64,000 nt of DNA from Arcobacteraceae bacterium (GCA_048268245.1 JBLWVX010000008.1:1-64000), one strand, 5' to 3'. Positions 1,553 to 18,349 are shown, counted from the first letter of the stretch. Notes: generated by a model from the sequence alone, not told the origin. Numbers and translations are program-made.

Positions 1553-1558
1553 TTAAAA

Positions 1559-2888: not shown

Positions 2889-3702
2889 TTCTAACTTCTT
2901 TACAAATCTTTCTCATTTGTTTATACTCACTTATTAACTCTTCTAAAGGAGGTATATTATTATCTCTCTCTATCATAACAGGAGCATCTACTTGCTTTAA
3001 AGTATAATCCAAAAGCTTCCATACACCCTTGTCTATTGGCATTCCATGAGAGTCTATCTTCATATTTGCTTCTTCATCAAAATAATGCCCTGCCATGTGC
3101 ATGTAAGCTACTTTACTTTTATCTATTTGATCTATAAATCTTCTTGCTTTAAAACCATGATTTACAGAGTTTACAAATACATTGTTTACATCAAGAAGCA
3201 TTTTAGCACCTGATTTCTCCATAACTTCGTTTATAAAATCAACTTCTGCCATTTCACTGTAAGGTACTAAATAATAAGTAGCATTTTCAAGTATCAAATT
3301 TCTTTGAATAATATCCTCAACCTCTTTTACCCTATCACTTATAACTTCAATCATTTTTTTAGTCATAGGAACAGGTAATAATTCATAGGATTGTTTATTA
3401 TCTAATGATGAAAAACTTAGATGTTCAGAATAGTATTCAATATTGTATCTATCTAAAAAAGTTTTGATCTGTTTGACAAACTTTTTATTTAGTTTGTCAA
3501 CAGACCCAATTGATAGAGATAAACCATGAGCTATAGTTGGTCTTTCAAAAACTGCTTGCTCAAAAGATTTTTCAAAAAGTTTTGGCATATGCATCCAGTT
3601 TTCAGGAGTTACTTCCCAAAAATCTGGTCTAAACTTTGTATCTTTTAAATCAAGCAGAAAATCGCTTCTAAGTCCTAAGCCACAGCCTTTTAAATTTATC
3701 AT
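2881..3702 (-). CDS. DUF692 multinuclear non-heme iron oxidase (MNIO, HvfB/BufB-like)
   Basis: GLGLR, EVTPENW, HGLSLSIGS, YSEHLSF, LILEN, LLDVNNVFVNSVNHG, HMAGH, IDSHG, IERD motifs. Confidence 0.95.
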   Translation of the reverse strand: MINLKGCGLGLRSDFLLDLKDTKFRPDFWEVTPENWMHMPKLFEKSFEQAVFERPTIAHGLSLSIGSVDKLNKKFVKQIKTFLDRYNIEYYSEHLSFSSLDNKQSYELLPVPMTKKMIEVISDRVKEVEDIIQRNLILENATYYLVPYSEMAEVDFINEVMEKSGAKMLLDVNNVFVNSVNHGFKARRFIDQIDKSKVAYMHMAGHYFDEEANMKIDSHGMPIDKGVWKLLDYTLKQVDAPVMIERDNNIPPLEELISEYKQMRKICKEVRNG

Positions 3703-3720
3703 CTAATCATCTTCTCCGTT

Positions 3721-4071
3721 TCATCCACATTTACCAGCGCCACAAGCACCAGTTGCTTTTTTCTCAGTTTTTTTCATGTCGCCACCACATTTTCCAGCTC
3801 CACAAGCACCTTTTTTCATATCTTTCTTCATGTCACTTTTCATGTCACCACCACATTTTCCAGCTCCACAAGCACCTTTTTTCATATCTTTCTTCATGTC
3901 GCTTTTCATGTCACCACCACATTTTCCAGCTCCACAAGCACCTTTCTTTTCCATTTTCTTAGTTTCACCACCACATTTTCCAGCTCCACAAGATCCACTT
4001 CCTGCAAACGCAGCAGATGTTGAAAGTGCTGCTCCTAGCATAATTCCTGCTAATTTCATTTTTTTACTCAT
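3721..4071 (-). CDS. Exported Cys-repeat RiPP precursor (HvfA/oxazolin-like KCG family)
   Basis: Sec-type signal ending AAFA; five G[S/A]CGAGKCG units (10 Cys) with Met/Lys/Asp linkers; directly upstream of DUF692. Confidence 0.88.
   Translation of the reverse strand: MSKKMKLAGIMLGAALSTSAAFAGSGSCGAGKCGGETKKMEKKGACGAGKCGGDMKSDMKKDMKKGACGAGKCGGDMKSDMKKDMKKGACGAGKCGGDMKKTEKKATGACGAGKCG
3724..3999 (-). repeat. Intragenic tandem repeat (66-bp/22-aa core unit)
   Basis: ccacattttccagctccacaag-type unit recurs five times (one copy slightly diverged); GACGAGKCGGDMKSDMKKDMKK occurs twice exactly. Confidence 0.95.
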
Positions 4072-4100
4072 TTCTTATCCTTTTATTTAAATTTAATTTT

Positions 4101-4679
4101 TTATTTTTCTACTGCTTGTACTTCTACTTGAATTTTTACATTCTCACCAACAGCTACACCACCAAGCTCTAAAGCTTTATTCCATTTTAGGTCATAATCA
4201 AATCTATTAATTTTACCCTCAAGAGTGAAACCAACTCTTGTATTTCCTTCAAAGTCTTTGATTGTTGCTAAATCATCAACTTCTAAAGTAACTGGTTTAG
4301 TAATACCTCTAATAGTTAAGTCTCCTTTCATTTCCCCTTCATCACCATCAGCTTTATATGATTTCATCACAAAAGTCATTTTAGGAAATTTTTCTGATAA
4401 GAAGAAGTCTTCACTTTTTAAGTGATTATCTCTTTTTACTATTCCTGTATCAACAGATGCTGTATCAACTGTTGCTTTAAAAGTATTAAAAGTTTTAGTT
4501 TTACTATCAAAATCTATTACTGCATCGTATTTCTTAAAATCACCCTTAACATTAGTAATCATTAAGTGTTTTACAGAAAAACCTACACTTGTATGAGAGC
4601 CATCTAAGTTATATGGTGTTGCAAATGCCACACCTGCTGTTAATACAGCTGTACCTAAAAGCTTACTAAAAAATCCCAT
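4101..4679 (-). CDS. yceI: YceI-family periplasmic lipid/polyisoprenoid-binding protein
   Basis: Signal peptide; HTSVGFSVKHL, RDNHLKSEDFF, GDLTIRGITKPV motifs. Confidence 0.92.
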   Translation of the reverse strand: MGFFSKLLGTAVLTAGVAFATPYNLDGSHTSVGFSVKHLMITNVKGDFKKYDAVIDFDSKTKTFNTFKATVDTASVDTGIVKRDNHLKSEDFFLSEKFPKMTFVMKSYKADGDEGEMKGDLTIRGITKPVTLEVDDLATIKDFEGNTRVGFTLEGKINRFDYDLKWNKALELGGVAVGENVKIQVEVQAVEK

Positions 4680-4720
4680 TTTGTCTCCTTTTATTAACCC
4701 TTATTTGTTTTGATAAAAGA

Positions 4721-4753
4721 ATTTTATATTTTTTTTGTGTAGTTAATGTTAAG
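4721..4753 (-). promoter_or_regulatory. Copper-island box plus -10 for the yceI-RiPP operon
   Basis: Minus strand CTTAAC-ATTAA-CTACAC-N10-TAAAAT; first half-site degenerate. Confidence 0.62.
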
Positions 4754-4783
4754 TAGTCACTAAACTTATAACTTTAGTGACTA
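4754..4783 (-). terminator. Hairpin at end of cusA
   Basis: tagtcactaaa / tttagtgacta 11-bp inverted repeat overlapping the cusA stop; no clear U tract. Confidence 0.5.
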
Positions 4784-7700
4784 ACTGTAATATCTTTTAA
4801 CTTATCACCTTTATAAATTGCATATATATAAAAAATCGCAGGAATAATGATAAGAGTTAATAAAGCTGAACTAACCATCCCACCTATCATTGGTGCTGCA
4901 ATTCTTTGCATAACTTCACTTCCTACTCCATCTATATACATAATAGGAATTAAACCACCTAAGATTGCAAATAATGTCATAAGTTTAGGTCTTAGCCTTA
5001 ATACTGCACCTTTATAAATACCATGGAATATATGCTCTTTTGTAAACTCAATTTGCTTTTTAACTAACTCATTCATAGCTTCATGTAAATAAACAAGCAT
5101 TACAATAGAAGTTTCAGCAGCAACCCCTAAAAGAGCTAGGAAACCAACTATTACAGCAATAGAGATATTAAAGTTTAGATAATCTAAATAGAATATCCCA
5201 CCTGTTAGTGCAAATGGCAATGTAAAAAATATTATTATGGTATAAGTAATATTTCTTAATGCAAAATATATCAAAATAAAAATAATCACAAACGTTAAAG
5301 GAATAATATAAGTAAGTCTTTTCATTGCTGACTCAAGATATTCACTTTGTCCTGCCCACTCAAGATAATACCCCTCAGGAAGCTTTATATCTTTTAATAT
5401 ACTAATAGCTTCATCTTTATACTGTTTTGATGAAATACCATTTTTTGGCGTGATATAAATAAAGTTTACATTTAAAGCCTTCTCTGATTTAATCACAGAT
5501 GGCCCTTCTTCATAATATAAATCTGCAAACATTTCTAAAGGTTGAAAACCTAGTTTTGTTTTAACTTGAAGATTTTTTAAAGCTGTAATATCTTCTCTTT
5601 GAGCTGTTTCATATCTTAGACTTATTGGATATCGCTCTAAACCATCAATAAAAGTTGAGATTTTACTTCCTGCAACTCCTAAACTTATAGTTGATAAAAT
5701 ATCATTTTTACTAATTCCATATCTTGATAAAAGCTCTTCTTTTACATTGATATTTAAATAATATCCAGAATTAATTTTATCAGTTGATACAGATAAAGTT
5801 TTATCAAAAGCTTTTAATTTTTGTTCTATTAATCCTGCTGTTTCTTCTAACTGCTCATGACCACTACCATAAAGTTTAATTCCAAGAGGTGTTCTAATAC
5901 CTGTTAAAAGCATATCAATTCTTCCTCTAATAGGGTATGTCCAAGAGTTAATAAGGCCTGCTATTCTTAGTTTTTCATCCATTTCTTGCATAAGTTTTTT
6001 ATATGTCATACCCTCACGCCATTGATCTTGAGGCTTAAAAGTAATAATAGTTTCAATCATTGCAAGTGGTGCTGGGTCTGTTGCACTATCAGCTCGACCT
6101 GCTTTTCCAAATACTGTATCAACTTCAGGAAAAGATTTGATAATTTTATCTGTTTTATTTGTAAGTTCCCTTGATAAATCAACTCCTATTCCATAAGGAG
6201 TTACAGGCATATACATAAAAGTTTGTTCATTCATCATTGGCATAAATTCCCAGTTTTGTTTTTTGTACACTGGGTATGCAGCTATTAGTGTTCCTATAAA
6301 ACCTAAAACTATTAAATATCTCATTCTAAGAGATGTTTTTAAGATAGGAGAATATAAAAGTGTAAAGAATCTATTTAAGATATTTTTATTCTCACTTAGT
6401 ATTTTTCCTTTTATTAAGAACACCATTAAAATAGGCACTAAAGTAATAGATAAAATAGCCCCTGCTATCATGGCAAAAGTTTTTGTAAATGCTAGTGGAG
6501 TAAATAATCTTCCCTCTTGTCCTGTTAAAGCAAATATTGGTAGGAAAGATACCACAACTAAAATAAGTGCGAAAAAGATTGGACGCCCTACTTGTTTTGC
6601 AGATTTTATTATAATCTCTACTCTCTCTTTATTAGAAATATTCTCTTTTCCTTGTAAATACTTGTGAGCATTTTCTACCATAACTATTGTTGCATCTACC
6701 ATTGCTCCAATAGCAATAGCAATACCACCTAAACTCATAATATTTGAACCCATTCCAAATAGTTTCATTAGTAAAAAAGTAATTAAAACAGTAATAGGTA
6801 AAGTAATGATAATAATCAATGCACTTCTAAAGTGGAATAAAAACAAGGCACTAACAATGATAACTATAATAGACTCTTCAATAAGAGTGTTTTTTAAAGT
6901 ATCAATAGCCTTATCAATAAGTGAAGACCTATCATAAGTTTCGACTACTTCAACACCCTCAACCTTTAAAGTTTCTAACTTTTTCTTTACGGCTTTTATT
7001 ACAGCATAAGGATTCTCTCCATATCTTACTACTACTATTCCACCAACTGTATCACCCTGTCCATTTAAATCAGCCATACCTCTTCTATTTGTAGAAGTTA
7101 TGTTTACATCAGCTATATCTTTTATTTTTAAAGGTGTACTATTTAAAGTTTTGATTGTAATATTTTCAATATCAACAACACTTTGTAAATAACCTTTGGC
7201 TTGAATCATATGCTCAAAACCATTTTCTAAAACTATTCTTCCACCTTTTTCATCATTATTTGAAGTAAGAGCTTTTTTTATTTCATCTACACTTAAATCA
7301 TATTGCACTAGTTTATCTTGGTTTAAAGTAATCTCATAGTTTTTTATAAAACCGCCAATTGAAGCTATTTCACTAACCCCATCAACACCTAAAAGTGCAT
7401 ATTTATAATAGTAATCTTGTAGAGTTCTTAACTCATCAAGAGATTTAGTATCTGATTTTAAAGCATACTCATAAGCCCAACCAACACCTGTAGCATCTGG
7501 ACCAATAGCTACATTTACACCAGTAGGGAATGTTCCTTGAAGTTGAGACAACTGCTCCAAAATTCTGTTTCTTGAATCATATAAATCAGTACCATCTTTA
7601 AAAATGATATAAATCAAAGCATTTTGAAAAGAACTCATTGCTCTTACTGTTTCAATATTTGGTAAACTCATAAGATTTGAAATCAAAGGATATGACACTT

Positions 7701-7890
7701 GTTCTTCAATAGTCTTAGGACTTTGTCCTGGCCATTTAACTTGTACAATTACCTGAGGTGGCGATAAATCAGGGATTGCATCAAGAGATGTATTTTTTAC
7801 TGCCCAAAAAGAAGCAAAACTTAAAACTATTACAGAAAACAATATTAAAAATTTATTTTTTATACTATATGAAATTATATTTTCAACCAT
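4774..7890 (-). CDS. cusA: CusA/CzcA heavy-metal efflux RND permease (Cu/Ag type)
   Basis: LDAIPDLS, GPDATGVGW, GIAIAIGAMVDA, DPAPLAMIET, RLRPKLMT motifs; 1038 aa. Confidence 0.95.
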   Translation of the reverse strand: MVENIISYSIKNKFLILFSVIVLSFASFWAVKNTSLDAIPDLSPPQVIVQVKWPGQSPKTIEEQVSYPLISNLMSLPNIETVRAMSSFQNALIYIIFKDGTDLYDSRNRILEQLSQLQGTFPTGVNVAIGPDATGVGWAYEYALKSDTKSLDELRTLQDYYYKYALLGVDGVSEIASIGGFIKNYEITLNQDKLVQYDLSVDEIKKALTSNNDEKGGRIVLENGFEHMIQAKGYLQSVVDIENITIKTLNSTPLKIKDIADVNITSTNRRGMADLNGQGDTVGGIVVVRYGENPYAVIKAVKKKLETLKVEGVEVVETYDRSSLIDKAIDTLKNTLIEESIIVIIVSALFLFHFRSALIIIITLPITVLITFLLMKLFGMGSNIMSLGGIAIAIGAMVDATIVMVENAHKYLQGKENISNKERVEIIIKSAKQVGRPIFFALILVVVSFLPIFALTGQEGRLFTPLAFTKTFAMIAGAILSITLVPILMVFLIKGKILSENKNILNRFFTLLYSPILKTSLRMRYLIVLGFIGTLIAAYPVYKKQNWEFMPMMNEQTFMYMPVTPYGIGVDLSRELTNKTDKIIKSFPEVDTVFGKAGRADSATDPAPLAMIETIITFKPQDQWREGMTYKKLMQEMDEKLRIAGLINSWTYPIRGRIDMLLTGIRTPLGIKLYGSGHEQLEETAGLIEQKLKAFDKTLSVSTDKINSGYYLNINVKEELLSRYGISKNDILSTISLGVAGSKISTFIDGLERYPISLRYETAQREDITALKNLQVKTKLGFQPLEMFADLYYEEGPSVIKSEKALNVNFIYITPKNGISSKQYKDEAISILKDIKLPEGYYLEWAGQSEYLESAMKRLTYIIPLTFVIIFILIYFALRNITYTIIIFFTLPFALTGGIFYLDYLNFNISIAVIVGFLALLGVAAETSIVMLVYLHEAMNELVKKQIEFTKEHIFHGIYKGAVLRLRPKLMTLFAILGGLIPIMYIDGVGSEVMQRIAAPMIGGMVSSALLTLIIIPAIFYIYAIYKGDKLKDITVSH

Positions 7891-7899
7891 GATATATTC

Positions 7900-8919
7900 C
7901 TACCATTCATCATCTGAATCAGAGTCATAAAGTGCATTTGTAATTGCATCTGAATCTAATAAGAATAATGCATTGTTTATTACCTCATCCCCTTCTTCTA
8001 AGCCATCAAGTATTTCGTACTTATAAGAAGACAGTCTTTTTGCTTCAACCTTTACAGGTTCAAACTCTTTTTTTGAAATAGGTTTAAATACATAATATTC
8101 ACTTCCTTTTGATAGAACTGCTGTTTTAGGAAGTGTGAGCATTGTTTTTTGTGTTGATTTTAATTTTACTGTTCCAAACATATTTGGATAAAGTTTTAAA
8201 TCCTTGTTATCAACTATAAATCTTACATCAATACTTTTATCTTTTTCATCAACATTTGGATAAATATAGTCAAGTTTTGTTTTAATAGGAGTAGCTAATC
8301 CATCTACATAAACTGAAGCTTCCATCTTATCTTTTAAAAACCCTAAATCTTTTTGATAAATATTTGCTATAAACCATAGTTTTTCTATATTTGCAAGTTG
8401 TAATAAAAGGTTACCTTTTTTGATGGCACCTTTATCATTTATATTTTTTTGTAAAACTATTGCATTTATAGGTGAGTACACTTTTACACCATTATATGAA
8501 AGTTTATTTCTTTTAATTTTCTCTAACTCTTTTTTATTTATATCTAAAGCTTTTAACTTTTCAAGAGTACTTAAGTAAAGGGGTTTATTAACTTTTTTTG
8601 CGATTTGCAACTCTTTTTGAATTGAGTAAATCTCATCTGAATAAACTTGAAAAAGCTCTTCGTTTTTATTTACTATCATAAAAGTTTTGTTTGCATTTAA
8701 ATTTGTAATATATCCATCAAATCTAGTAACCACATCATCTACTTTTGATTCATCAATTGCCATCTTTCCATAAAAGCTTTTTGTTATTGAAACCTCTTCT
8801 TGTTTTACTTTTACTGTTTTACGATTGAAAAGCTGTTCTACTTCTATAATTTTTGCATTTAAACTTGTAAAAATAAACAGTGATAAAAAAATCGCACTTT
8901 TAATATAATATTTTTGCAT
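7900..8919 (-). CDS. RND periplasmic adaptor (CusB/CzcB-like)
   Basis: Signal peptide, DYIYP, LYPNMF, GLEEGDEV, ALFLLDS; upstream of cusA. Confidence 0.9.
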   Translation of the reverse strand: MQKYYIKSAIFLSLFIFTSLNAKIIEVEQLFNRKTVKVKQEEVSITKSFYGKMAIDESKVDDVVTRFDGYITNLNANKTFMIVNKNEELFQVYSDEIYSIQKELQIAKKVNKPLYLSTLEKLKALDINKKELEKIKRNKLSYNGVKVYSPINAIVLQKNINDKGAIKKGNLLLQLANIEKLWFIANIYQKDLGFLKDKMEASVYVDGLATPIKTKLDYIYPNVDEKDKSIDVRFIVDNKDLKLYPNMFGTVKLKSTQKTMLTLPKTAVLSKGSEYYVFKPISKKEFEPVKVEAKRLSSYKYEILDGLEEGDEVINNALFLLDSDAITNALYDSDSDDEW

Positions 8920-8922
8920 TTA

Positions 8923-10119
8923 TTAGTCCTCTAAAGTATAGTATTTTGTTTTAGCATAGTTTGAAAAGTACTCAAACTTTTCATCAAGGGCTTTTATCTC
9001 AAATGAAATTAATTCATTTAAATTTTTAATTAAAGCTTCTGGCTTAACTTTTGAAAAACTATTATTGTTTTCAAGGTTTTTCTGTATCTTCTTTTTAAGT
9101 GGTAAAATTTGCTTTTTTATAAGTTTATAGTTTAAAAAAGCACTATTCGCACTATTAACATATGTTTTAAGTTCTGTTTGTAAAACTCTTTTTGTATCAT
9201 CAAGTTTTGAAGTGACTTTATTTGATTCAAACTTTGCTTTTAAAGAGTTCAATTTTTGAGTATTATTTATAGTTAAAGGTATATTGACAGAGATATTCGC
9301 ATAATCTTCAAACTTACTATCTCTATTAAAATAAGTCACATTTACTTTAATATCAGGTATTTGTTTTGCTTTTTCAAGCTTTGAAAGATAGATATATTTT
9401 TTTGATTTTATATACTCTTGTTTTAAAATTGGATGTTCATCACTATTCATATTTAAAACTAGCTTTTTTAACTTGTTTATATCATTTTGTGAAATTTCAT
9501 CTATTTTCATATAAGAAATTTGCTCTAGCTTTAAATATAAATTATCAATTAGATTCTTTAGTTTTTGTTTTTGAATTTCTACTTTAAAAAAAAGTACCTT
9601 CGCATCTATTACTTCATTTTGTGTAGTTTTTCCAAACTCATAAAGAGATTTAGATAAAAACTCTAATGTTTTGATATTTTTTTTATACTCATCAAGTAGT
9701 TTTAGTTTGTTTTCTAAAACTAGTATTGAGTAAGCTAACTCATAAATCTTTGCTTTTAGCTTTAACTTTTGATTTTCTAGTACTAGAGTTTTGATTTGCA
9801 TATCTTTTAAAGCTATTTTTTCTTTTATTTCCAATTTCCCATTTGTAGGAATAACTTGAGAAAGCCCAATAAAACTAGCCTGCATTGCTTCTTTATCTCT
9901 TTTAAAAGGCTCATCAAAATGAATATCATTAAATCCAAGACTAAGTACTGGATCACTCCATTTTGAAGCAAGTTTTATATTTTCATTCGCAACTTTAATA
10001 GAGTGATTTAAACTTCTTAAATCACTACTATTTTGTAAACTATTTGAAACAATTTCATCTATTGATACTGCAAAACTCAAAGATGTACATAGAGTTAATG
10101 TTAAAGCTAACTTTTTCAT
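8923..10119 (-). CDS. TolC-family outer membrane efflux protein (CrdB-like)
   Basis: Signal peptide, helical OEP repeats, position in the RND operon. Confidence 0.82.
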   Translation of the reverse strand: MKKLALTLTLCTSLSFAVSIDEIVSNSLQNSSDLRSLNHSIKVANENIKLASKWSDPVLSLGFNDIHFDEPFKRDKEAMQASFIGLSQVIPTNGKLEIKEKIALKDMQIKTLVLENQKLKLKAKIYELAYSILVLENKLKLLDEYKKNIKTLEFLSKSLYEFGKTTQNEVIDAKVLFFKVEIQKQKLKNLIDNLYLKLEQISYMKIDEISQNDINKLKKLVLNMNSDEHPILKQEYIKSKKYIYLSKLEKAKQIPDIKVNVTYFNRDSKFEDYANISVNIPLTINNTQKLNSLKAKFESNKVTSKLDDTKRVLQTELKTYVNSANSAFLNYKLIKKQILPLKKKIQKNLENNNSFSKVKPEALIKNLNELISFEIKALDEKFEYFSNYAKTKYYTLED

Positions 10120-10502
10120 TATATATTCACACTTCCTCTTAAAGTATAAACTTTTCCTTCTTTTGTTTTAAACTTAAGTTGATATTGCCATGTTCCACTC
10201 ATAGGAAAATTAATCATCATTTTATATTTTCCATTTATAAATTTTGCTTTATCCTTATATTCCATATATGGCATACCTGGCATTTCTGGCATAAAAAACT
10301 TTGATTTTACTTTTGCGTTTGTTACTGTTTGTCCATCTTTTAAAAGTTCTACAAAAAGATTATTGTCTCCTGCAACTAAAGATTTTTCAGATGTCATCTT
10401 TATAGTATAACCACCTTTTTCTCCTGTTTGAGAAACTGGTTCTGCACTTAAGATACCAACTGTAAATAACATTGCTACAATTACTTTGAAAATTGACTTC
10501 AT
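10119..10502 (-). CDS. crdA: CrdA-like (YtkA/FixH-fold) periplasmic copper-binding protein
   Basis: Signal peptide, MPEMPGMPYM motif, MSGTW; first gene of a crdA-crdB-czcB-czcA-type operon as in Helicobacter pylori. Confidence 0.78.
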   Translation of the reverse strand: MKSIFKVIVAMLFTVGILSAEPVSQTGEKGGYTIKMTSEKSLVAGDNNLFVELLKDGQTVTNAKVKSKFFMPEMPGMPYMEYKDKAKFINGKYKMMINFPMSGTWQYQLKFKTKEGKVYTLRGSVNI

Positions 10503-10529
10503 TTAAGACTCCTAATTTTTATTTTAGGA

Positions 10530-10562
10530 ATCTTAACTTTTTTATATGGAGTTTGTGTGTAG
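10530..10562 (-). promoter_or_regulatory. Copper-island box plus -10 for the crdA efflux operon
   Basis: Minus strand CTACAC-ACAAA-CTCCAT-N10-TAAGAT. Confidence 0.75.
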
Positions 10563-11711
10563 TTAAAACTTTAATTCAAAAGTAGTTGATTTTTGGTACT
10601 GCGAGCTTACATCTATTTTAATATTATAGTGTTTACAAATATCGCTTACTATATTTAAGCCTAATCCAAAACCACCTTGTTCATTTGTAGCTCTATAATA
10701 TCTGTTGAAAATATCATTTACTTTTTCTTTTTTTATTCCTATACCTGTATCTTTAATAGTTAAAATATTTTCATCTAAAGTAATATAAATTTTTCCTTTT
10801 ACTTTATTATATTTTATGGCATTTGAAATAAGATTATTTACAACTCTAATAAAGTCATCTTTATCAATTTCAAAATAAAAATCTTTTATATCTTTTTTTA
10901 TTTCAATTTTTTTCTTGCTTGATAATGGAATAAAATACTCCAATTGTTCTTCTATTAACTCTTTTAGATTATATTTTTTTATATCTCTATTTTTATCTTT
11001 ATTTTGTAAAAAAATATATGTTAAATCTTTATATATTTCAGATACTCTTTGGGCACTAAGTCTTATTCTTTCAATCTTTTTTTCATTTAAAGTTTTATCT
11101 TCAGTAGACATCATAATAGCACTAATAGGAGTATTTAATTCATGTGTAGTATCTTTTATAAAGTTATTTAACTTAACTCTTTCTTCTTTTATTGGTTTTA
11201 AAAAAAGCTTGCCAAGATAAAAGCCAACAAGACATATAAACAAATAAATAAAAGAAAAAAATACTAAAATATTTAGTTTTAAACTATCTATTTTTTCATG
11301 ATAAGAATTATCTTCAATAGCTAAAAAATAAACCCCTAAATGCCCAAAGGTTGAATCATCAACTAAAATTAAACTTTTTTTTGTTTCAATGACTTTTTTT
11401 TCTAAATTTAATTTTGTATTGAGATTACCAAAAATCTTTTTTTTGTTTTTATCATAAAAAGCTATTTTATAAGTTTTATTTTTTAAAAGATTAGAAGTAT
11501 CAAACTTACTATTTGACATGTGAGCTAAAGTAACTTTAGAAGATAATTTTGATAAGTTGTTTTGCATTCTCGATTTTGTTAAATCTAAATAAAGTCTTTG
11601 TTCATTCTGAAAATAAAAAAAAGCCAAAAATAAAATCAAAATCAAAGAAGAACCTAGAAATAGACCAACAAATCTATAATAAGTACTCTTTTCACTAGCT
11701 GTTAAATCTAT
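10563..11711 (-). CDS. crdS: Sensor histidine kinase, CrdS-like (start uncertain: TTG 11645 or ATA 11711)
   Basis: Two TMs, DTTHELNTPI H-box, NNLISNAIKYN, GFGLGL; frame is open to an ATA with GGAG upstream. Confidence 0.78.
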   Translation of the reverse strand: MDLTASEKSTYYRFVGLFLGSSLILILFLAFFYFQNEQRLYLDLTKSRMQNNLSKLSSKVTLAHMSNSKFDTSNLLKNKTYKIAFYDKNKKKIFGNLNTKLNLEKKVIETKKSLILVDDSTFGHLGVYFLAIEDNSYHEKIDSLKLNILVFFSFIYLFICLVGFYLGKLFLKPIKEERVKLNNFIKDTTHELNTPISAIMMSTEDKTLNEKKIERIRLSAQRVSEIYKDLTYIFLQNKDKNRDIKKYNLKELIEEQLEYFIPLSSKKKIEIKKDIKDFYFEIDKDDFIRVVNNLISNAIKYNKVKGKIYITLDENILTIKDTGIGIKKEKVNDIFNRYYRATNEQGGFGLGLNIVSDICKHYNIKIDVSSQYQKSTTFELKF

Positions 11712-12354
11712 AGCCTACTCCTCTAATATTTGAGATTAAATCCTCATTTAAAATTTTACGTAAATTTTTTATATATGTTCTTATTGTTGCAGGACTTGGA
11801 TTATCTTCATAAGCCCATACATTCATACTTAATTCATCTACACTTACAGCAACATTTTTTCTTTTCATTAAGTATAATAACACATCACACTCTTTTTGTC
11901 TAATGTGAATTTTTTCATTATCTTTTATTATTTCTAAATTATTTACATCTAATTTTATATTTTCACTAATTTCTAAAAGTTCATTAGGAGAAATATTATG
12001 AAGTCTACAAACATTTTTAATTCTTAAATCTAACTCTCTTAACTCAAAAGGTTTTTTAATATAATCATCACAACCCGTTTTAAAACCTTCTTCTACATCC
12101 TCTAATAAATTTGCAGATGTGATAAAAATTGTTGCAGTATTTATACTTTCATCTCTTAGGTGCTTTAATAATTCAAAACCATTTAAAGAAGGTACATTGA
12201 TATCAAATAATAATATATCATAGTTTTTAGAATAAATAAGTTCTAAAGCTTCATTTCCATCATAAGCACAGTCTACATCATGCCCTTTCTCTTCTAAATG
12301 TTCTTCTATTATCTCATTTAGTAATAAATCATCTTCTAATAATAATATTTTCAT
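11695..12354 (-). CDS. crdR: OmpR-family response regulator, CrdR-like
   Basis: Receiver plus winged helix with IRTYIKNLRK; coupled to the kinase upstream of crdA. Confidence 0.78.
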   Translation of the reverse strand: MKILLLEDDLLLNEIIEEHLEEKGHDVDCAYDGNEALELIYSKNYDILLFDINVPSLNGFELLKHLRDESINTATIFITSANLLEDVEEGFKTGCDDYIKKPFELRELDLRIKNVCRLHNISPNELLEISENIKLDVNNLEIIKDNEKIHIRQKECDVLLYLMKRKNVAVSVDELSMNVWAYEDNPSPATIRTYIKNLRKILNEDLISNIRGVGYRFNS

Positions 12355-12396
12355 ATAATTCCTTATGAAAATATTATAACATAAATATTTTTGTAT

Positions 12397-12422
12397 AAAG
12401 AGATTACTAAAGTAATCTCTTT
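12397..12422 (-). terminator. Probable intrinsic terminator after the porin gene
   Basis: aaagagattact / agtaatctcttt inverted repeat. Confidence 0.7.
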
Positions 12423-12426
12423 TAAT

Positions 12427-13623
12427 TTAGAACGAATAAATTAATCTTGTTCTTAGATCCGTTGCATCTTTAGAATCATCTTCATAATCTAAAATCGAAT
12501 AATCCAATTGAGCTTTTAATGAACTATTAAATTTATACTCTAAATTTAATGTAGTTTCATCTAAATCTGCATTAATTGAAGGTAAATCAAAACTTGAATA
12601 TCTTAGTTTTGTTTTTAAATCTGCAAACTTATAAGCAGCTCCAATTTGCCATGAATCTGCCCCAGCTTTAAATGCTTTTGAACCAGCTGTTTTAGTTGTA
12701 GCAGTATAATGAGCATAAGCTCCTTGACCAATTCCTCTAACTACATCATTATCATCATCTGTTGAAGTATATCCCGCAAATAATGAAACATCCGAAATAT
12801 TACCACCAATCTTGAATCCATACATTGAAGAATCATTAGATGATGCAGCATCATAATTTGTATTATAATATTGAGCAGCAATATAAGCAGGTCCTAAATC
12901 ATATTTAGCATCTGCATAAATCCCTACAGCAACATCAACTACATCTGCATATTGTGCTTGAATAGTTAGATTTGAAATAGAATTGTTCTTTAAATAAATT
13001 GTTCTAACACCATCATTACCAATTTTATAGAAATCACCTGGTTCACCTGTTCCATTTGAATCAAAGTTAACAAAAGAGTTATCACTATATGAAGACTTAT
13101 CAGTTCTTGTTTGATATTTTGTAATTAATCCTGCTACTAATGTTGTATCAGGAATATCACTATTAACTAATAAATATGCTTCAAAAGATTCTTTAATAAG
13201 TCTTGAACCTGAACCTGCTAATAAAGGCGTTTTTACATATTGTCTACCACCTTTAAATGTAGTATTGTTATACGTATATTGTAAGTAAGACTCTGATAAT
13301 ACAGATCCTTGTGCGTCCATACTTCCTGCAGTTTTACCATCTTCATCATCTAGACTTGTTACTTGAGAAGTTTGTAGTGTAGCACCTAACACTAATCCAT
13401 TATACGAATCTGTAACAAAATTTAAAGATCCTCCATTTGCCCAAATTGAACTATCATTTTTATTAGCGCCATCAAAATCTTGTGCAAAATAATATGACTT
13501 AAGTTCTCCTTTTAATTTTCCATTTGAAAATGCTTCTGAAATTGAATCAGCTGCGAATAACTGTGAACTTGAACTAAATACTGTTATTGCAGTAATTAAA
13601 CTTAATTTCATTATCTTTTTCAT
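12427..13623 (-). CDS. OprD-like outer membrane porin
   Basis: ATG 13623 with AGGAG SD, signal peptide, KGGRQ...TPL, beta-strand pattern, C-terminal YSF. Confidence 0.85.
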   Translation of the reverse strand: MKKIMKLSLITAITVFSSSSQLFAADSISEAFSNGKLKGELKSYYFAQDFDGANKNDSSIWANGGSLNFVTDSYNGLVLGATLQTSQVTSLDDEDGKTAGSMDAQGSVLSESYLQYTYNNTTFKGGRQYVKTPLLAGSGSRLIKESFEAYLLVNSDIPDTTLVAGLITKYQTRTDKSSYSDNSFVNFDSNGTGEPGDFYKIGNDGVRTIYLKNNSISNLTIQAQYADVVDVAVGIYADAKYDLGPAYIAAQYYNTNYDAASSNDSSMYGFKIGGNISDVSLFAGYTSTDDDNDVVRGIGQGAYAHYTATTKTAGSKAFKAGADSWQIGAAYKFADLKTKLRYSSFDLPSINADLDETTLNLEYKFNSSLKAQLDYSILDYEDDSKDATDLRTRLIYSF

Positions 13624-13660
13624 TTCTTCTCCTAATTTTATTAATTTACAAAACACTGGT

Positions 13661-13693
13661 AGTTTAACTCACAAAGATGTAGTTAACATGTAG
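13661..13693 (-). promoter_or_regulatory. Copper-island box plus -10 for the porin
   Basis: Minus strand CTACAT-GTTAA-CTACAT-N10-TAAACT. Confidence 0.75.
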
Positions 13694-13695
13694 TT

Positions 13696-13728
13696 TTACA
13701 CCTTGGTTCCATCTTTAAAATATATCAT
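13696..13728 (+). promoter_or_regulatory. Copper-island box plus -10 for the orphan regulator at 13756
   Basis: TTACAC-CTTGG-TTCCAT-N10-TATCAT, back-to-back with the porin box. Confidence 0.68.
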
Positions 13729-13755
13729 TCAATTAATATATAAGAAGGAATAAAA

Positions 13756-14409
13756 ATGAAAATACTATTATTAGAAGATGATATTATTCTTGCGGATTTA
13801 TTAAAAGAGTATTTAGAAAAACAATTTTATAGTGTAACTCATCTTTATTCAGGAGAAGAGGCTTTAGAAAAACTCTTTTTTAATAAATATGATTTATTAA
13901 TCTTTGATATAAATGTTCCTGATATAAATGGTTTAAAAGTTTTTGAAAATTTCTCAAATGAAGGATTTAACACACCAATTATTTTTATAAGTGCCTCTAC
14001 AGACTTTAAAGAATTTGAGAAAGCATATAAAATTGGTGCAAATGATTTTCTTAGAAAACCTTTTAAATTAGAAGAATTAAAACTTAGAATTGAATATATT
14101 CAAAAGAACCTTTTATCTTCTAAATTTTTCATTTTAAATGAAAATATTAAATTTGATTTTTATAATATGTGCTTAGAAAAAAAAGGAAAAAAAATAAAAC
14201 TTCCTAAAAAAGAAGCTGAGATAATTAAATATTTTTTAACAAATAGTAATAGAATTATCTCTATAAATGAATTAATAGTTAATATTTGGGATTACTCTAG
14301 TACTCCATCAATTGCTACAATTAGAACATATATAAAAAATATTAGAAAAAACCTTGAGTATGATTTTCTTGAAACGGCTAAAGGCTTAGGATATATATTC
14401 AAAATTTAA
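13756..14409 (+). CDS. Orphan OmpR-family response regulator (CrdR paralogue)
   Basis: MKILLLEDD, FDINVP, ATIRTYIKNIRK; no adjacent kinase. Confidence 0.9.
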   Translation: MKILLLEDDIILADLLKEYLEKQFYSVTHLYSGEEALEKLFFNKYDLLIFDINVPDINGLKVFENFSNEGFNTPIIFISASTDFKEFEKAYKIGANDFLRKPFKLEELKLRIEYIQKNLLSSKFFILNENIKFDFYNMCLEKKGKKIKLPKKEAEIIKYFLTNSNRIISINELIVNIWDYSSTPSIATIRTYIKNIRKNLEYDFLETAKGLGYIFKI

Positions 14410-14411
14410 AT

Positions 14412-14444
14412 CTACACGTTAACTACATTTAAAAAATATATACT
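14412..14444 (+). promoter_or_regulatory. Copper-island box plus -10 for the candidate sRNA
   Basis: CTACAC-GTTAA-CTACAT-N10-TATACT. Confidence 0.75.
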
Positions 14445-14449
14445 TCTTA

Positions 14450-14550
14450 AAAGTCAATTCTTGGCTTTATCATAATGCCGAAGTAAACTCCTAAATTTTC
14501 GAAATCTTTTAAAATGCGAACCTTATACCTTCTCTTCGGCATTATTTTTT
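14450..14550 (+). ncRNA. Candidate small regulatory RNA or structured leader
   Basis: 5' hairpin aagtcaa/ttggctt; perfect 12-bp stem 14472-14483/14534-14545 followed by a T tract; CU-rich loop AAACTCCT; own boxed promoter. Confidence 0.6.
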
Positions 14551-14581
14551 CCACACACAGTCCACATGATTTATATAAAAT
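14549..14581 (+). promoter_or_regulatory. Copper-island box plus -10 for SHOCT-regulator operon
   Basis: TTCCAC-ACACA-GTCCAC-N10-TAAAAT. Confidence 0.7.
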
Positions 14582-14607
14582 AGCATCAAATAAAATAAGG
14601 AGTTTCT

Positions 14608-14823
14608 ATGTTTTCATATATGGATATGAATATGACTATATTTCATGGTCTTACTATGTTTATATTTTGGTTTATTGTTTTTTTTATATTATTTTCATTA
14701 TTTAATAAAAAAGAAGACAAGAATAATTCTATAAATGAGATTTTAAAAAAGCGTTTTGCAAAAGGTGAAATTACAAAAAAGCAATATGAAGAAATTAAAG
14801 AAATACTAATTCAAGAGAGCTAA
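14608..14823 (+). CDS. SHOCT-domain small membrane protein
   Basis: AGGAG SD; Met/His N-terminus, one TM, EILKKRFAKGEITKKQYEE. Confidence 0.85.
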   Translation: MFSYMDMNMTIFHGLTMFIFWFIVFFILFSLFNKKEDKNNSINEILKKRFAKGEITKKQYEEIKEILIQES

Positions 14824-15492
14824 ATGAAAATTTTACTTTTAGAAGATGATATGATTTTAAATGAAATTGTTGAAGAGTTTTTGGTATCTTTAAATTATGA
14901 AGTAGTCTCAGTTTATGATGGCCAAGAAGCTCTTGAAATAATTTATGAAGAAAAGTTTGATCTTTTTTTATTTGATGTTAATGTACCAAATATTAATGGC
15001 TTTGATTTATTAAAAGAATTAAAAAAAGAAAATATAAATACAGCAATAATCTTTATTACTTCAAGAAGCTTGCCCGAGGATTTAAAAATTGGTTTTAGTT
15101 TAGGATGTGATGACTACCTAAGAAAACCTTTTGAATTAAGTGAACTTCAATTAAGAATAGAAAATATAGCTAGATTAAGACAAATAAATACTTATGGTTT
15201 AATTAAAATTGATGAAAATATTCAATACAATTCTCAATCAAAAACTATTATAAAAAATTCTAAAGAATATAATTTATCAAATATTGAATCAAAAATATTT
15301 GAATATATGCTAAAAAATAAAAATAGACCTTTATCAATTGATGAAATTTCTATTAATATATGGCTCTATGATGAAATACCAGAAACGACTACAATAAGAA
15401 CTTATATTAAAAATCTAAGAAAAAAATTAGAGAAAAATAGTATTACAACAATAAAAAATATTGGATATAAATTAAATATAAAAGTAGACTAG
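14824..15492 (+). CDS. Orphan OmpR-family response regulator (CrdR paralogue)
   Basis: Receiver plus winged helix, TIRTYIKNLRKK; no kinase follows. Confidence 0.9.
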   Translation: MKILLLEDDMILNEIVEEFLVSLNYEVVSVYDGQEALEIIYEEKFDLFLFDVNVPNINGFDLLKELKKENINTAIIFITSRSLPEDLKIGFSLGCDDYLRKPFELSELQLRIENIARLRQINTYGLIKIDENIQYNSQSKTIIKNSKEYNLSNIESKIFEYMLKNKNRPLSIDEISINIWLYDEIPETTTIRTYIKNLRKKLEKNSITTIKNIGYKLNIKVD

Positions 15493-15499
15493 GCTACTT

Positions 15500-17677
15500 T
15501 TATATTTTTTTAAGTTTTAGTCTTAGAGAGTTTAATACTACTGTAACAGAACTAAAACTCATAGCAATTCCTGCGTACATAGGACTTAACATTAATCCCC
15601 ATACTGGATATAAAACACCTGCAGCAAGTGGGATTCCAACAGCATTATAAATAAATGCCCAAAATAAATTTTGTTTAACTATTTTCATAGTTTCAACAGA
15701 TAAATTTAAACTTTTTATTATGGAATTTAATTCATTGTTGATTAAAATAATATCTCCCGCATCTTTACTTATATCAGAACCAGAGTTTAAAGTAATACCT
15801 ATATTAGCTTTTTTTATTGCTGGAGCATCATTTATACCATCACCAGCAAACATTACTATTGCATTTTTTTGTAGTTTCTCTATAATCTCATATTTTTCAG
15901 TAGGTATAACTTCACTATAAACTTTTTCAATTCCTAAATTATTTGCAATACTTAATGCAGTAGTTTTATTATCACCTGTTAATAATACAGGAGTAATTCC
16001 TCTATTTTTTAAACTTACAATTAATTGTTTTGCACCTACTTTTAGTTCATCAGCTAAAGAAAAAGACCCTATAGAAAGTTTATTTATTGCAGCTAAAATA
16101 ACTCCATTACCTTTTTCTAATTCTTCTAAATAAAACTCTTTATGTTTTTTATGTATTTCAACATTATTTTGCTCTAAAAGTTTTATATTTCCTATAAAGA
16201 TTTCATCATTTTTATAAAAAGCTTTCACTCCTTTTCCAGGTAAAACCTCTATATTTTCAATTTTTATATCTAAAGGTATTTTTTGATTATCTAAATACTT
16301 TACAACTGCTTTTGAAATAGGATGTTCACTATATTTTTCAAGGGAACCTAATAGTTTAAAATATTTTCCTTCTATATCTGTATTAACAACTGAAATTTCT
16401 CCTTTTGTTAATGTTCCTGTTTTATCAAAAACTGCATATTTTATTTCTTTAATTTGTTCTAATACTTCTGGGTTTTTGATTAAAATACCTTCTTTTGCTC
16501 CTCTACTAACAGAACTAACTATTGCTATTGGTGTTGCCAGTCCTAAAGCACAAGGACAAGATATGATTAAAACACTAATACTTGCAAGTATTGCATTTTG
16601 CACATTTCCTAATATTGCCCATATAATAAAAGTCAAAATAGAAGTTATAATTACTAAAGGAACAAAAACATTAGCAATTTTATCAGCAAATCTACTTATT
16701 GGTATTTGTTTACTTTGTGCATTTTTTAAAAGATCAATAATTTTAGATAAGGTTGTATCATTTGATTCTTTTAATACTTTTACTTTTAAAACACCATTTG
16801 TATTTAAAGTACCACTTAATAGTTCATCATTTTTTTCTTTATAAACAGGTAAAGATTCTCCTGTTATCATTGAAGCATCAATATTTGCTGAGCCTTCTAA
16901 TATCAAACCATCACAAGGAATTTTTTCTCCTGTTTTTACTAAAACTATATCATTAACTTTTAATTCTTTTATTAAAACTTGTTTTATGTCCTTTTCATTT
17001 AATACCAAATTTGCATATTGAGGTGCTAACTTCATCAAATTTTTCAAGAATGTACTAGCTTTTTGTTTGGAGTTTTCTTCTAAATATTTACCCAATAAAA
17101 CAAAACTAATAATGACAGCCGCACCATCAAAATATAAAAATCTTAAATTCTCAGGAAATAAAGAGGGAAAAAATACGACAAATGTCGAATAAAAATAAGC
17201 AGCACTTGTACCTAAAGCTACCAATACATTCATATCATAGTTATTATTTTTCACAGACTTATAAGAGAGTTTATAAAATCTAGCTCCTGTATAAAACTGA
17301 ACTATTGTAGCTATTAAAAATATTAAATAATTATTTGTAGGTTCATTAAATAAACTTGAAAAAGCAATGATAAATATAAGGATAGTTAAAGATATAGATA
17401 TAAAAAAGAGTTTTCTTAATTTTTTAAAAGCTATTAACTGTTCTTTTTCTAAGGCTTGAAGATTTTCCTCTACTTTATATCCAAGATCTTGTATTGAATT
17501 AATTAGTTTATTTTCATCAAATTTATTTTCATCAATCTCGAAGTAACCTTGGGAAGAAGCAAAACTTACCTTAGAAGAAATGACACCTTCTTGTTTATTT
17601 AAAAATTTTTCTATTCCATTAGAACAATTTACACATGTCATTCCTAAAATATTCAAATTTACTTTTTTTTTAGACAT
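15500..17677 (-). CDS. copA: Copper-translocating P1B-1 ATPase
   Basis: GMTCVNC HMA, TGES, CPCALGLATP, DKTGT, SEHP, GDGIND, YN and MSFSS Cu(I) motifs. Confidence 0.96.
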   Translation of the reverse strand: MSKKKVNLNILGMTCVNCSNGIEKFLNKQEGVISSKVSFASSQGYFEIDENKFDENKLINSIQDLGYKVEENLQALEKEQLIAFKKLRKLFFISISLTILIFIIAFSSLFNEPTNNYLIFLIATIVQFYTGARFYKLSYKSVKNNNYDMNVLVALGTSAAYFYSTFVVFFPSLFPENLRFLYFDGAAVIISFVLLGKYLEENSKQKASTFLKNLMKLAPQYANLVLNEKDIKQVLIKELKVNDIVLVKTGEKIPCDGLILEGSANIDASMITGESLPVYKEKNDELLSGTLNTNGVLKVKVLKESNDTTLSKIIDLLKNAQSKQIPISRFADKIANVFVPLVIITSILTFIIWAILGNVQNAILASISVLIISCPCALGLATPIAIVSSVSRGAKEGILIKNPEVLEQIKEIKYAVFDKTGTLTKGEISVVNTDIEGKYFKLLGSLEKYSEHPISKAVVKYLDNQKIPLDIKIENIEVLPGKGVKAFYKNDEIFIGNIKLLEQNNVEIHKKHKEFYLEELEKGNGVILAAINKLSIGSFSLADELKVGAKQLIVSLKNRGITPVLLTGDNKTTALSIANNLGIEKVYSEVIPTEKYEIIEKLQKNAIVMFAGDGINDAPAIKKANIGITLNSGSDISKDAGDIILINNELNSIIKSLNLSVETMKIVKQNLFWAFIYNAVGIPLAAGVLYPVWGLMLSPMYAGIAMSFSSVTVVLNSLRLKLKKI

Positions 17678-17705
17678 CTTATATCCTTATTAATTTCAAT
17701 ATTTG

Positions 17706-17909
17706 TTATTCTATAATTTCAAAATCTAATTCTTTCATTTCTTTTTTAAAAACCTCTTCTTGATTTTTATTTTCGATGTTCACAGAAACCTCTCTAGGTT
17801 CAACTTCTAAATTAACTTCTATTTCTCCAAAATTATTTTTTAAAGTACTTTTAATTAAATTAGCACAATTATTACATGAAATATTTCTTGCTTTATATAT
17901 TTTTTTCAT
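17706..17909 (-). CDS. HMA-domain copper chaperone (CopZ-like)
   Basis: ISCNNC motif, 67 aa, upstream of copA. Confidence 0.85.
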   Translation of the reverse strand: MKKIYKARNISCNNCANLIKSTLKNNFGEIEVNLEVEPREVSVNIENKNQEEVFKKEMKELDFEIIE

Positions 17910-17925
17910 TTAAAATCCTTTCATT

Positions 17926-17951
17926 ATCATGTCTCTTAATTGAGACATGAT
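17926..17951 (-). terminator. Hairpin between small secreted protein and copZ-like gene
   Basis: atcatgtctc / gagacatgat 10-bp inverted repeat. Confidence 0.55.
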
Positions 17952-17959
17952 TAATTTAT

Positions 17960-18163
17960 TTATCTATCTAAATTATCATCTGGATAGATTGTATCTAATA
18001 CACTTTGAGGAATTAAAGATTTTTCAACTTTCTTACTTTCACTTTTATGAAATTCTTTATGCATATTCATACATTTTTCTTTGCTCATATTATGACTATC
18101 ATTTGCATATAAACTTCCTGCTACTAAACCTAAAGCTAAAACTGATAATACTAACTTTTTCAT
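17960..18163 (-). CDS. Small secreted His/Met/Cys-containing protein
   Basis: AAGGA SD, signal peptide ending LYA, mature part SHNMSKEKCMNMHKEFH. Confidence 0.75.
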   Translation of the reverse strand: MKKLVLSVLALGLVAGSLYANDSHNMSKEKCMNMHKEFHKSESKKVEKSLIPQSVLDTIYPDDNLDR

Positions 18164-18192
18164 TATTTGTCCTTTATTTTTTGATTTAACGT

Positions 18193-18225
18193 ATTATAAA
18201 TAACAAAGATGGAAGCAATGTGGAA
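18193..18225 (-). promoter_or_regulatory. Copper-island box plus -10 for the small protein-copZ-copA unit
   Basis: Minus strand TTCCAC-ATTGC-TTCCAT-N10-TATAAT. Confidence 0.75.
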
Positions 18226-18349
18226 TATTAATCATAATTTTAAAAAAAAATAAATTATTTTTTTAGATTTATTTGTTTTATAACAATATTTATAACTAAA
18301 ACAAGGGTTTTTATTGGTATAATTTAACATAATGCAAGAAAGGATTAAT

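Follow-up and report, generated by a model that had tools for sequence, protein, structure and literature searches.

Helicobacter pylori's CrdRS two-component system, for which the gene order crdA-crdB-czcB-czcA and copper-dependent activation have been described (PMC9696931, in the accessible part of the article), is the closest known counterpart of a copper locus that we analysed in a 64,000-nucleotide (nt) stretch of an Arcobacteraceae genome (GCA_048268245.1 JBLWVX010000008.1:1-64000). This stretch, hereinafter the window (G+C content 28.2%), is contig C8:1-64000 of a 57-contig, 2.68-Mb genome (G000; the G, C and L numbers are our labels for genomes, contigs and loci). As in H. pylori, a member of the same order, genes for a histidine kinase and an OmpR-type response regulator stand beside those for a small secreted protein, an outer membrane factor, an adaptor and a resistance-nodulation-division (RND) pump, in the same order. 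The element under study is a tandem hexamer repeat, hereinafter the box, that precedes the -10 hexamers of promoters in this locus. In H. pylori, a pair of AC-rich motifs in the crdA promoter is reportedly required for binding by phosphorylated CrdR (bioRxiv 10.64898/2026.06.29.735229, in the available part of the preprint), and the text of PMC9927306 gives no binding motif. The two systems are likened by gene order; unlike the H. pylori system, the one described here comprises three paralogous regulators with one kinase and at least 10 box promoters with conserved subclasses of the box, and these promoters include those of an operon for an HvfA-type ribosomally synthesized and post-translationally modified peptide (RiPP), of CopA, of a porin, of a thioredoxin and of a putative small RNA (sRNA).

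Three further systems are relevant for comparison. In PhoB-type (class II) activation by winged-helix regulators, two half-sites, repeated directly about every 11 bp, take the place of the -35 element and end about 10 bp before the -10; the boxes described here have the same geometry as pho boxes but differ in the hexamer, the signal and the regulon. In the enterobacterial OmpR-MicF-ompF circuit, the regulator drives a porin-silencing antisense sRNA while driving another porin. The sRNA candidate of the present locus is, likewise, extensively antisense to a major porin mRNA in its ribosome-binding region, but it is unrelated to MicF (no Rfam match), belongs to another phylum and would respond to copper as the presumed signal. 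The CusRS and CopRS systems of Proteobacteria resemble the present one in placing RND efflux and periplasmic copper proteins under copper-dependent two-component control. A metal-responsive two-component system of Pseudomonas aeruginosa lowers the OprD porin, with a requirement for Hfq (PMC5083921, in the accessible part of the article), whereas here the gene for the OprD-like porin has the box in front of it and would be turned on, and it is the Campylobacter-type major outer membrane porin (MOMP) that is predicted to be lowered, via the sRNA. HvfA and related metallophore RiPPs have been linked to copper (PMC11252979 and PMC12452194, each in the part available). A literature search found no paper on copper regulation or sRNAs in Arcobacter. 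The present analysis provides a sequence-derived, testable map of the control of copper homeostasis for the Arcobacteraceae, where regulation has barely been studied experimentally, and places HvfA/bufferin-type RiPP metallophore operons under a putative copper two-component system. What it adds to the systems outlined above is twofold: operator subclasses, each putatively paired with its own paralogous regulator, and a candidate copper-linked sRNA antisense to a major porin mRNA.

Seven promoters of the window were listed in the original prediction as sharing one tandem-repeat box with fixed spacing, and all seven sites match as written in the direction of transcription (Table 1). Each has the architecture hexamer-N5-hexamer-N10-TAnnnT, with 10 nt to the -10 in 7/7; the half-sites are direct repeats with an 11-bp period and a total length of 17 bp, both at these sites and in relatives, which is the OmpR/PhoB-type geometry that had been proposed. 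A ribosome-binding site and an ATG codon follow 26-41 nt after the -10 at six of the seven sites; the seventh is followed by non-coding sequence, the sRNA candidate, with a stem and a U run at its end. The gene for the kinase-linked regulator RR1 (crdR) lacks a box, as had also been noted: only a hairpin and an extended -10 (TGnTATAAT) are found between the porin stop codon and the RR1 start codon. Taken together with the comparative data below, these observations indicate that the box is a real, if fairly ordinary, regulatory site, and that the boxes are very probably operators of OmpR/PhoB-family regulators of the RR1, RR2 and RR3 types, jointly defining a putative copper regulon. This core interpretation is well supported by comparative evidence.

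The frequency of the box was compared with that in 20 order-3 Markov simulations of the whole genome. The strict pattern YTMCAY-N5-BTMCAY-N10-TANNNT has 12 matches in the genome compared to 1.6 +/- 1.4 in the simulations (maximum 5), and 6 matches against 0.008 expected within positions 4601-18400 (13.8 kb) of the window. A looser pattern that includes the yceI site has 18 matches in the whole genome, where 8.7 +/- 1.9 are expected, and 7 in the same region, where the expectation is 0.045. These patterns were derived from the sites themselves, and therefore the independent test is conservation in other genomes. Ten of the 12 strict matches are intergenic, and eight are located upstream of copper genes. 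Two of these sites extend the earlier list: the box at C5:4428 precedes genes for a SHOCT paralogue and a DUF411 protein, and the one at C5:3186 precedes a 59-amino-acid (aa) open reading frame (ORF), a DUF2933 gene and a gene for a YHS/HMBD P-type ATPase. A looser match at C19:19054 (L002:3055-3087) lies upstream of a gene for a periplasmic thioredoxin. Among the other four strict matches, two fall in coding sequence, a chance-level number, and two are intergenic, before genes for a Leu/Ile/Val-type (LIV) binding protein and an RraA-like protein.

Conservation was examined in regions of up to 20 kb around the best homologues of the regulator RR2, which was queried against 41 related genomes; 20 such regions were taken from 18 genomes. 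Twelve of the 20 contain altogether 33 sites that match the looser pattern with a -10. These sites stand before YtkA/crdA genes with RND operons and before YceI-MbnB, OprD porin, regulator, SHOCT-DUF411-cytochrome c and CopZ-CopA genes; a single site, upstream of a DUF520 gene, looks like a chance match. Searches of whole genomes with the pattern and its reversed control produced 12 and 0 matches, respectively, in G000, 12 and 2 in G002, and 14 and 2 in G007, and 104 and 37 when summed over 25 genomes of the family. Fourteen further regions were picked from pattern matches by hexamer likeness, and for this reason only the identities of the genes are informative there. The first genes behind the 20 sites in these regions encode YtkA (five cases, in G028, G025, G016, G015 and G023), RND pumps (two), DoxX (two) and, once each, SHOCT, multicopper oxidase, YceI, MsrAB-thioredoxin, a DsbA-like protein and a rhodanese followed by redoxins; two more are small ORFs without a Pfam family, and no ORF was found behind four. 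In other families of the same order (G025, G028, G038), crdA, RND, multicopper oxidase, SHOCT and DoxX genes have the box upstream. Eight crdA relatives were selected not by their box but through a search with the YtkA-like protein (four of them on contigs of genomes already sampled); the pattern is present at -57 to -63 from the start codon in five, and the other three deviate at one or two places as judged by eye. Thus, the proposal that the box links the RiPP, efflux, porin and sRNA genes agrees with its conservation, in many genomes, before copper genes and together with a clade of OmpR-family regulators.

The three regulators RR1, RR2 and RR3 each contain Response_reg and Trans_reg_C domains. 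In a tree of 50 OmpR-type regulators, which comprised all those of this genome and those in the fetched regions, the RR1, RR3 and RR2 clades have supports of 99/98, 100/97 and 100/100, respectively, and together they form one weakly supported group (85/53), to which none of the genome's other OmpR-type regulators belongs. The phospho-acceptor aspartate and its partner residues are retained in the three clades. The alignment further shows that the recognition helix is nearly identical in all of them and that the C-terminal wing is clade-specific; such recently duplicated regulators, with the same helix, a different wing and a different spacer, offer a natural example of diverging operators and could show how cross-talk is avoided. 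The genome encodes one CrdS-like kinase. In G019, the orthologue of this kinase adjoins RR2, and in G010 it adjoins the porin gene, with RR2 and RR3 nearby and RR1 absent; these arrangements suggest that one kinase can serve several RR paralogues.

The boxes fall into at least three subclasses that are conserved, spacer included, at non-orthologous promoters. The crdA, SHOCT and yceI promoters follow CTMCAC-ACnnn-(C/G)TMCAY; class II, at the porin and sRNA promoters, is CTACAY-GYTAA-CTACAT; class III, at the promoters of the small protein/cop operon, the second ATPase operon and RR2, is TTMCAY-RTTRC-TTCCAY. The core of the H. pylori crdA promoter, available to us second-hand as a 16-nt string, can be aligned in the 11-bp register with boxes of the CTMCAC-ACnnn-CTMCAY form (our own alignment). 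In addition to the porin and the sRNA, class II sites are found at the non-orthologous promoters of an RR3-type gene (G007) and a 103-aa ORF (G019), and they usually adjoin the RR2 gene. Across 141 genomes of the family, the class II box with a -10 has 26 matches in 14 genomes, compared to 0 for the reversed control. Orthologues of RR2, defined by at least 51% identity and E <= 4.8e-64, are present in 13 of the 141 genomes. The class II box is present in 12 of these 13 genomes and in 2 of the 128 without RR2 (1/13 and 126/128 are boxless), a two-by-two table whose significance is overstated, since kinship between the genomes makes them non-independent observations; the 12 genomes with both come from six genera. 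The three discordant genomes (one with RR2 and no box, two with the box and no RR2) have fragmented assemblies or a completeness of 86-94%. Regulators at 46-48% identity are found in six genomes of genus g13, which were scored as lacking RR2 (the g13 regulator from G017 is in a different clade of the tree); if they were counted as RR2 genomes, the fraction would be 12/19 instead of 12/13, which weakens the association. Given the co-occurrence across the 141 genomes, the class II box is likely to be the operator of RR2.

The mechanism that we propose would start with the kinase and RR1, expressed from a box-free, constitutive promoter and sensing copper. The two hexamers of 11-bp period, which extend from about -39 to -23 and stop exactly 10 bp short of a weak, TG-less -10, would be occupied head to tail by a phosphorylated regulator dimer, and this dimer would recruit sigma-70 RNA polymerase in a PhoB-like manner. 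RR1 would act on the boxes with ACxxx spacers (crdA, yceI and SHOCT-RR3), RR3 probably on the TTCCAY-RTTRC-TTCCAY boxes (the cop operons and RR2), and RR2 on the CTACAY-GYTAA-CTACAT boxes (the OprD-like porin and the sRNA). The resulting regulon would include crdA-RND efflux, the YceI-HvfABC metallophore operon, CopZ-CopA, the second P-type ATPase operon, SHOCT-DUF411, the OprD-like porin, the periplasmic thioredoxin, two of the three regulators and one sRNA, which might pair with the 5' untranslated region (UTR) and Shine-Dalgarno sequence of the MOMP mRNA and lower its translation. If the sRNA lowers MOMP while RR2 drives the OprD-like porin, copper would thus swap a general porin for a specific one. 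The full three-tier wiring is put forward only tentatively. That a single kinase feeds three paralogues, each reading its own spacer flavour, in an RR1->RR3->RR2 cascade that culminates in a copper-driven porin switch via the sRNA is possible, and we consider it doubtful in this complete form. The original prediction of one box and one regulon holds with respect to the shared hexamer-repeat architecture and does not hold with respect to uniformity: since the subclasses are conserved and class II tracks RR2 alone, the network looks like a cascade or a partition rather than a flat regulon.

An alternative scheme would have a single regulator, the kinase partner RR1, occupy all the boxes, with RR2 and RR3 redundant or directed at other targets and with the subclasses adjusting promoter strength or stemming from the common ancestry of orthologous promoters. 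The near identity of the recognition helices, from which the same hexamer would be expected for all three paralogues, and the existence of only one kinase are compatible with this scheme, as is the blurred connection between class III and RR3 discussed below. It is, nevertheless, unlikely: the class II box with its GYTAA spacer recurs at non-orthologous promoters and follows the presence of RR2 in the census, and the genomes that encode RR1 without RR2 (G001, G003, G004 and G005) contain no class II boxes.

Several observations weigh against assigning the boxes to RR1, RR2 and RR3 as a copper regulon. Taken without its -10, the 17-nt box shows no enrichment in the genome (32 matches against 37.1 +/- 6.1), yet a -10 is present at exactly 10 nt in 12 of the 32 strict boxes, compared to about 4% expected, so that the signal lies in the coupling of box, spacing, -10 and place. 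The first hexamer of the yceI box (CTTAAC) is deviant, and the crdA box of G016, with an ATTCA spacer, is outside the class scheme. Eight of the 20 RR2-homologue regions have no box at the exact 10-nt spacing, and four of these eight have a box with another spacing. A pattern for the third class, TTMCAY-NTTNN-YTMCAY-N10-TANNNT, when run over the 141 genomes, mostly caught an unrelated class with T-rich spacers, blurring the class III-RR3 link, and the generic pattern also catches conserved box classes unconnected with copper, those before the LIV-binding protein and RraA genes. It had been recognized beforehand that the motif might be equally common at unrelated promoters; two thirds of the strict matches (8/12) are at copper genes, and the loose pattern does catch at least two non-copper classes. 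There is, furthermore, one CrdS-like kinase for three regulators. Finally, RR1, RR2 and RR3 score 127.7, 86.3 and 99.6, respectively, with TIGR01387 (cut-off 279.2), and the kinase scores 100.3 with TIGR01386 (cut-off 292.55). The three regulators are also far under the PhoB cut-offs of NCBIfam, and no CrdR model is among their NCBIfam matches. Because they are far below the TIGR01387 cut-off, they are not filed here as members of CusR/CopR, and the earlier designation 'CrdR-like' is not established.

The boxes could also be operators of a repressor, with a regulator over -39 to -23 occluding RNA polymerase until copper brings relief. Campylobacterota promoters generally function without a -35 element, and at such promoters a protein in this position could be an obstacle. 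The promoters themselves argue for activation: a TGn extension is missing from all seven box promoters and the -10 hexamers of several are weak, whereas the box-free RR1 promoter has TGnTATAAT, a combination that fits activator dependence, and the fixed 10-bp distance to the -10 is that of PhoB-type activation. Moreover, H. pylori CrdR is reported to activate crdA (PMC9696931; bioRxiv 10.64898/2026.06.29.735229; in the accessible parts of both), and altogether repression appears improbable. Still less credible is the possibility that the box is the -35 region recognized by an alternative sigma factor of the extracytoplasmic function (ECF) type and not a regulator site. The fixed distance to the -10 and the sharing of one element by a stress regulon are features that ECF promoters would have as well, but the element is a 17-bp tandem direct repeat with an 11-bp period, the -10 next to it is of the sigma-70 type (TAnnnT), the boxes travel with OmpR-family genes (and class II with RR2), and no sigma or anti-sigma gene was found with Pfam among the genes of the locus. 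A chance likeness of AT-rich promoters, with which the lack of over-representation of the bare 17-nt box would agree, is refuted by the excess of complete sites both genome-wide and in the region, by conservation across genera and families and by the low reversed controls.

The sRNA candidate, already listed as such in the original prediction, is substantiated here as a putative conserved RNA with a class II box promoter and a closing stem followed by a U run; it also has a 5' hairpin. The fold of positions 14451-14552 (about 100 nt) has an energy of -20.6 kcal/mol (z-score -4.35), and the longest ORF noted in it has 3 codons. A search of positions 4000-19000 with the Rfam families at E <= 1 gave no match for the sRNA and only one chance snoRNA match. 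A covariance model built from three sequences and searched in the 141 genomes identified homologues in 10 genomes of 4 genera, and a shorter copy was spotted by eye in G007. An RR2-type gene is located directly upstream of all 11 loci found by the model, nine of which also have an RR3-type gene downstream, and a class II box with a -10 precedes each locus. The closing stem is kept, with one pair varying between U:A, C:G and U:G; the 5' hairpin is weak and is present in 6/8 sequences (single folds). RNA contigs from four runs (metatranscriptomes of three studies), compared over 13500-15000 and 100% identical, are confined to the 5' end of the porin gene and, with such coverage, say nothing either way on the sRNA. 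These contigs reach 13642, 13629 and 13616, compared to a predicted porin transcription start at about 13652-13654; they have no common end, and none spans the promoter.

The loop of the sRNA contains modules (CUCCUAA, UUUCGAAAU and GCGAAC) that are antisense to the MOMP 5' UTR. When the loop was compared with 3385 candidate start regions, the top score was -29.5 kcal/mol against a mean of -10.3 (standard deviation 2.9) and a next-best score of -22.6; the top region is that of a Campylo_MOMP-family porin on contig C2 (gene L081:3686-4795, paired stretch L081:3629-3681). The predicted duplex is bipartite and takes in UTR positions -57 to -5, the Shine-Dalgarno sequence among them, with a full energy of -36.5 kcal/mol, compared to -17.6 +/- 3.5 (minimum -28.5) in 500 shuffles. 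For 11/11 sRNA homologues, the energies range from -31 to -52 kcal/mol with MOMP UTRs and from -17 to -28 with a non-MOMP site. In genomes with an exact match, a 17-nt element is found at the sRNA gene, in antisense, and at the MOMP ribosome-binding site, with one extra place in G097; no exact copy was found at the MOMP gene in G090, G100, G131 and G052. The protein search identified MOMP orthologues in 3/5 genomes, at 34-37% identity, and the remainder were sought by the UTR motif. We lean towards the prediction that the sRNA represses MOMP. The Campylobacterota are not known to use Hfq. If the pairing is real, it would represent a porin-silencing sRNA of Campylobacterota tied to metal stress, with possible effects on outer-membrane permeability. 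One finding speaks against reading the complementarity as a trace of this pairing: G001, G003, G004 and G005, in which no sRNA was found, have the UTR element conserved to the same degree. Its conservation is, accordingly, not explained by the sRNA, and the MOMP 5' UTR appears to be constrained by something else as well.

Regulation by the sRNA of its own copper genes was also considered and rejected, the crdA and porin start regions ranking only 364 and 550 of 3385. The MOMP 5' UTR, about 100 nt long, is near-invariant across three genera (L081:3560-3685; L086, L090, L093, L107-L110 and L115), with the encoded proteins about 35% identical. The promoter of the box-bearing OprD-type porin in G010 (L040:9772-9800, minus strand) has three tandem CTACAT hexamers with 11-bp spacing, compared to two in other genomes.

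The gene content was assigned with Pfam and NCBIfam, which agreed with the content assumed previously (Table 1). The RiPP precursor scores 29.6 with NF050137 (HvfA family; cut-off 19.5), and the RND pump scores 1006.5 with TIGR00914 (cut-off 701). The porin start is assigned to the ATG at 13623, the GTG at 13656 being within the promoter. Beyond the boxes listed in the table, variants of the yceI box precede yceI in G005, G017 and G007; boxes related to the SHOCT-RR3 one are found at SHOCT promoters of G002, G004 and G025 and on contig C5 of the same genome; and the class of the small protein/cop box occurs also in G002, G003, G007 (twice) and G010.

Table 1. Boxes, genes and other features of the copper locus (positions counted from the first nucleotide of the window; boxes read along transcription)
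Feature	Position	Strand	Basis
yceI - hvfA-type RiPP precursor - MbnB/MNIO enzyme - DUF2063/NGO1945_C protein operon	2202..4679	-	Pfam
yceI box and -10: CTTAAC-attaa-CTACAC-N10-TAAAAT	4721..4753	-	sequence; same box at yceI of G001, G002
crdA (YtkA) - outer membrane factor (OEP) - CusB-type adaptor (HlyD_D23/CusB) - CusA/CzcA RND pump (ACR_tran) operon	4774..10502	-	Pfam
crdA (YtkA-like) box and -10: CTACAC-acaaa-CTCCAT-N10-TAAGAT	10530..10562	-	sequence
Histidine kinase	10563-11645	-	Pfam
Response regulator RR1	11695-12354	-	Pfam, tree clade
Extended -10 (TGnTATAAT) of RR1-kinase operon, box-free	12373..12381	-	sequence
Hairpin between porin stop and RR1 -10	12397-12422		sequence
OprD-family porin, 398 aa	12427..13623	-	Pfam
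Porin box and -10, class II: CTACAT-gttaa-CTACAT-N10-TAAACT	13661..13693	-	also at porins of G002, G019, G010
RR2 box and -10: TTACAC-cttgg-TTCCAT-N10-TATCAT	13696..13728	+	similar boxes at RR2 orthologues of G010 and G007
Response regulator RR2, no adjoining kinase	13756..14409	+	Pfam, tree, alignment
sRNA box and -10, class II: CTACAC-gttaa-CTACAT-N10-TATACT	14412..14444	+	sequence, relatives
Candidate conserved sRNA, about 98 nt, predicted ends	14451..14548	+	fold, homologues, pairing
SHOCT-RR3 box and -10: TTCCAC-acaca-GTCCAC-N10-TAAAAT	14549..14581	+	sequence, relatives
SHOCT small membrane protein	14608-14823	+	Pfam
Response regulator RR3	14824-15492	+	Pfam, tree
CopA P-type ATPase	15500-17677	-	Pfam
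CxxC CopZ-like protein	17706-17909	-	Pfam, sequence
Small secreted Met/His-rich protein	17960-18163	-	sequence
Small secreted protein/cop box and -10: TTCCAC-attgc-TTCCAT-N10-TATAAT	18193..18225	-	sequence, relatives

Several additional features of this genome and its relatives were observed in the course of the analysis. In the SHOCT proteins (14608-14823, plus strand, and L001:4156-4371, minus strand), a Met-rich N-terminus, M-F-x-Y-M-D-M-N-M, is combined with a single membrane helix and a SHOCT domain in the cytoplasm, and their genes recur beside RR3, DUF411 and cytochrome c genes across genera; these small membrane proteins may bind copper and act as partners of the regulators. Between the genes for the small secreted protein and the CopZ-like protein, at 17926-17951, there is a perfect palindromic hairpin of 10 bp, which may attenuate or process the cop transcript. 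Another kinase-regulator pair (311-2212, plus strand) converges on the end of the yceI-hvf operon, and its regulator is outside the copper clade in the tree. On contig C5, transposase fragments (HTH_21 and rve core, two short ORFs; L001:4973-5611, plus strand) adjoin the second pair of copper operons, and this copper island may have been acquired.

The periplasmic thioredoxin on contig C19 (L002:3113-3481, plus strand) has an in-frame TGA at the first Cys of the redox motif (W-TGA-G-S-C), with a small hairpin 11 nt downstream of it and a SelO gene located divergently upstream. As a selenocysteine tRNA (tRNA-SeC) is encoded on contig C15, this protein is probably a selenocysteine thioredoxin. 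The site before the gene for the Leu/Ile/Val-type periplasmic binding protein (L003:4887-4919, minus strand; contig C21:36886-36918) is a TACATAA-type tandem repeat with 10 nt to the -10 that recurs in G001, G002, G007, G013, G015, G017 and G024 and is probably the operator of another OmpR-family regulator. The site before the RraA-like gene (L004:3078-3110, plus strand; contig C43:7077-7109) reads TTACAC-ttttt-CTACAT, with a third TAC one period further on, and this repeat with its T-rich spacer is kept in G002, G003 and genus g6.

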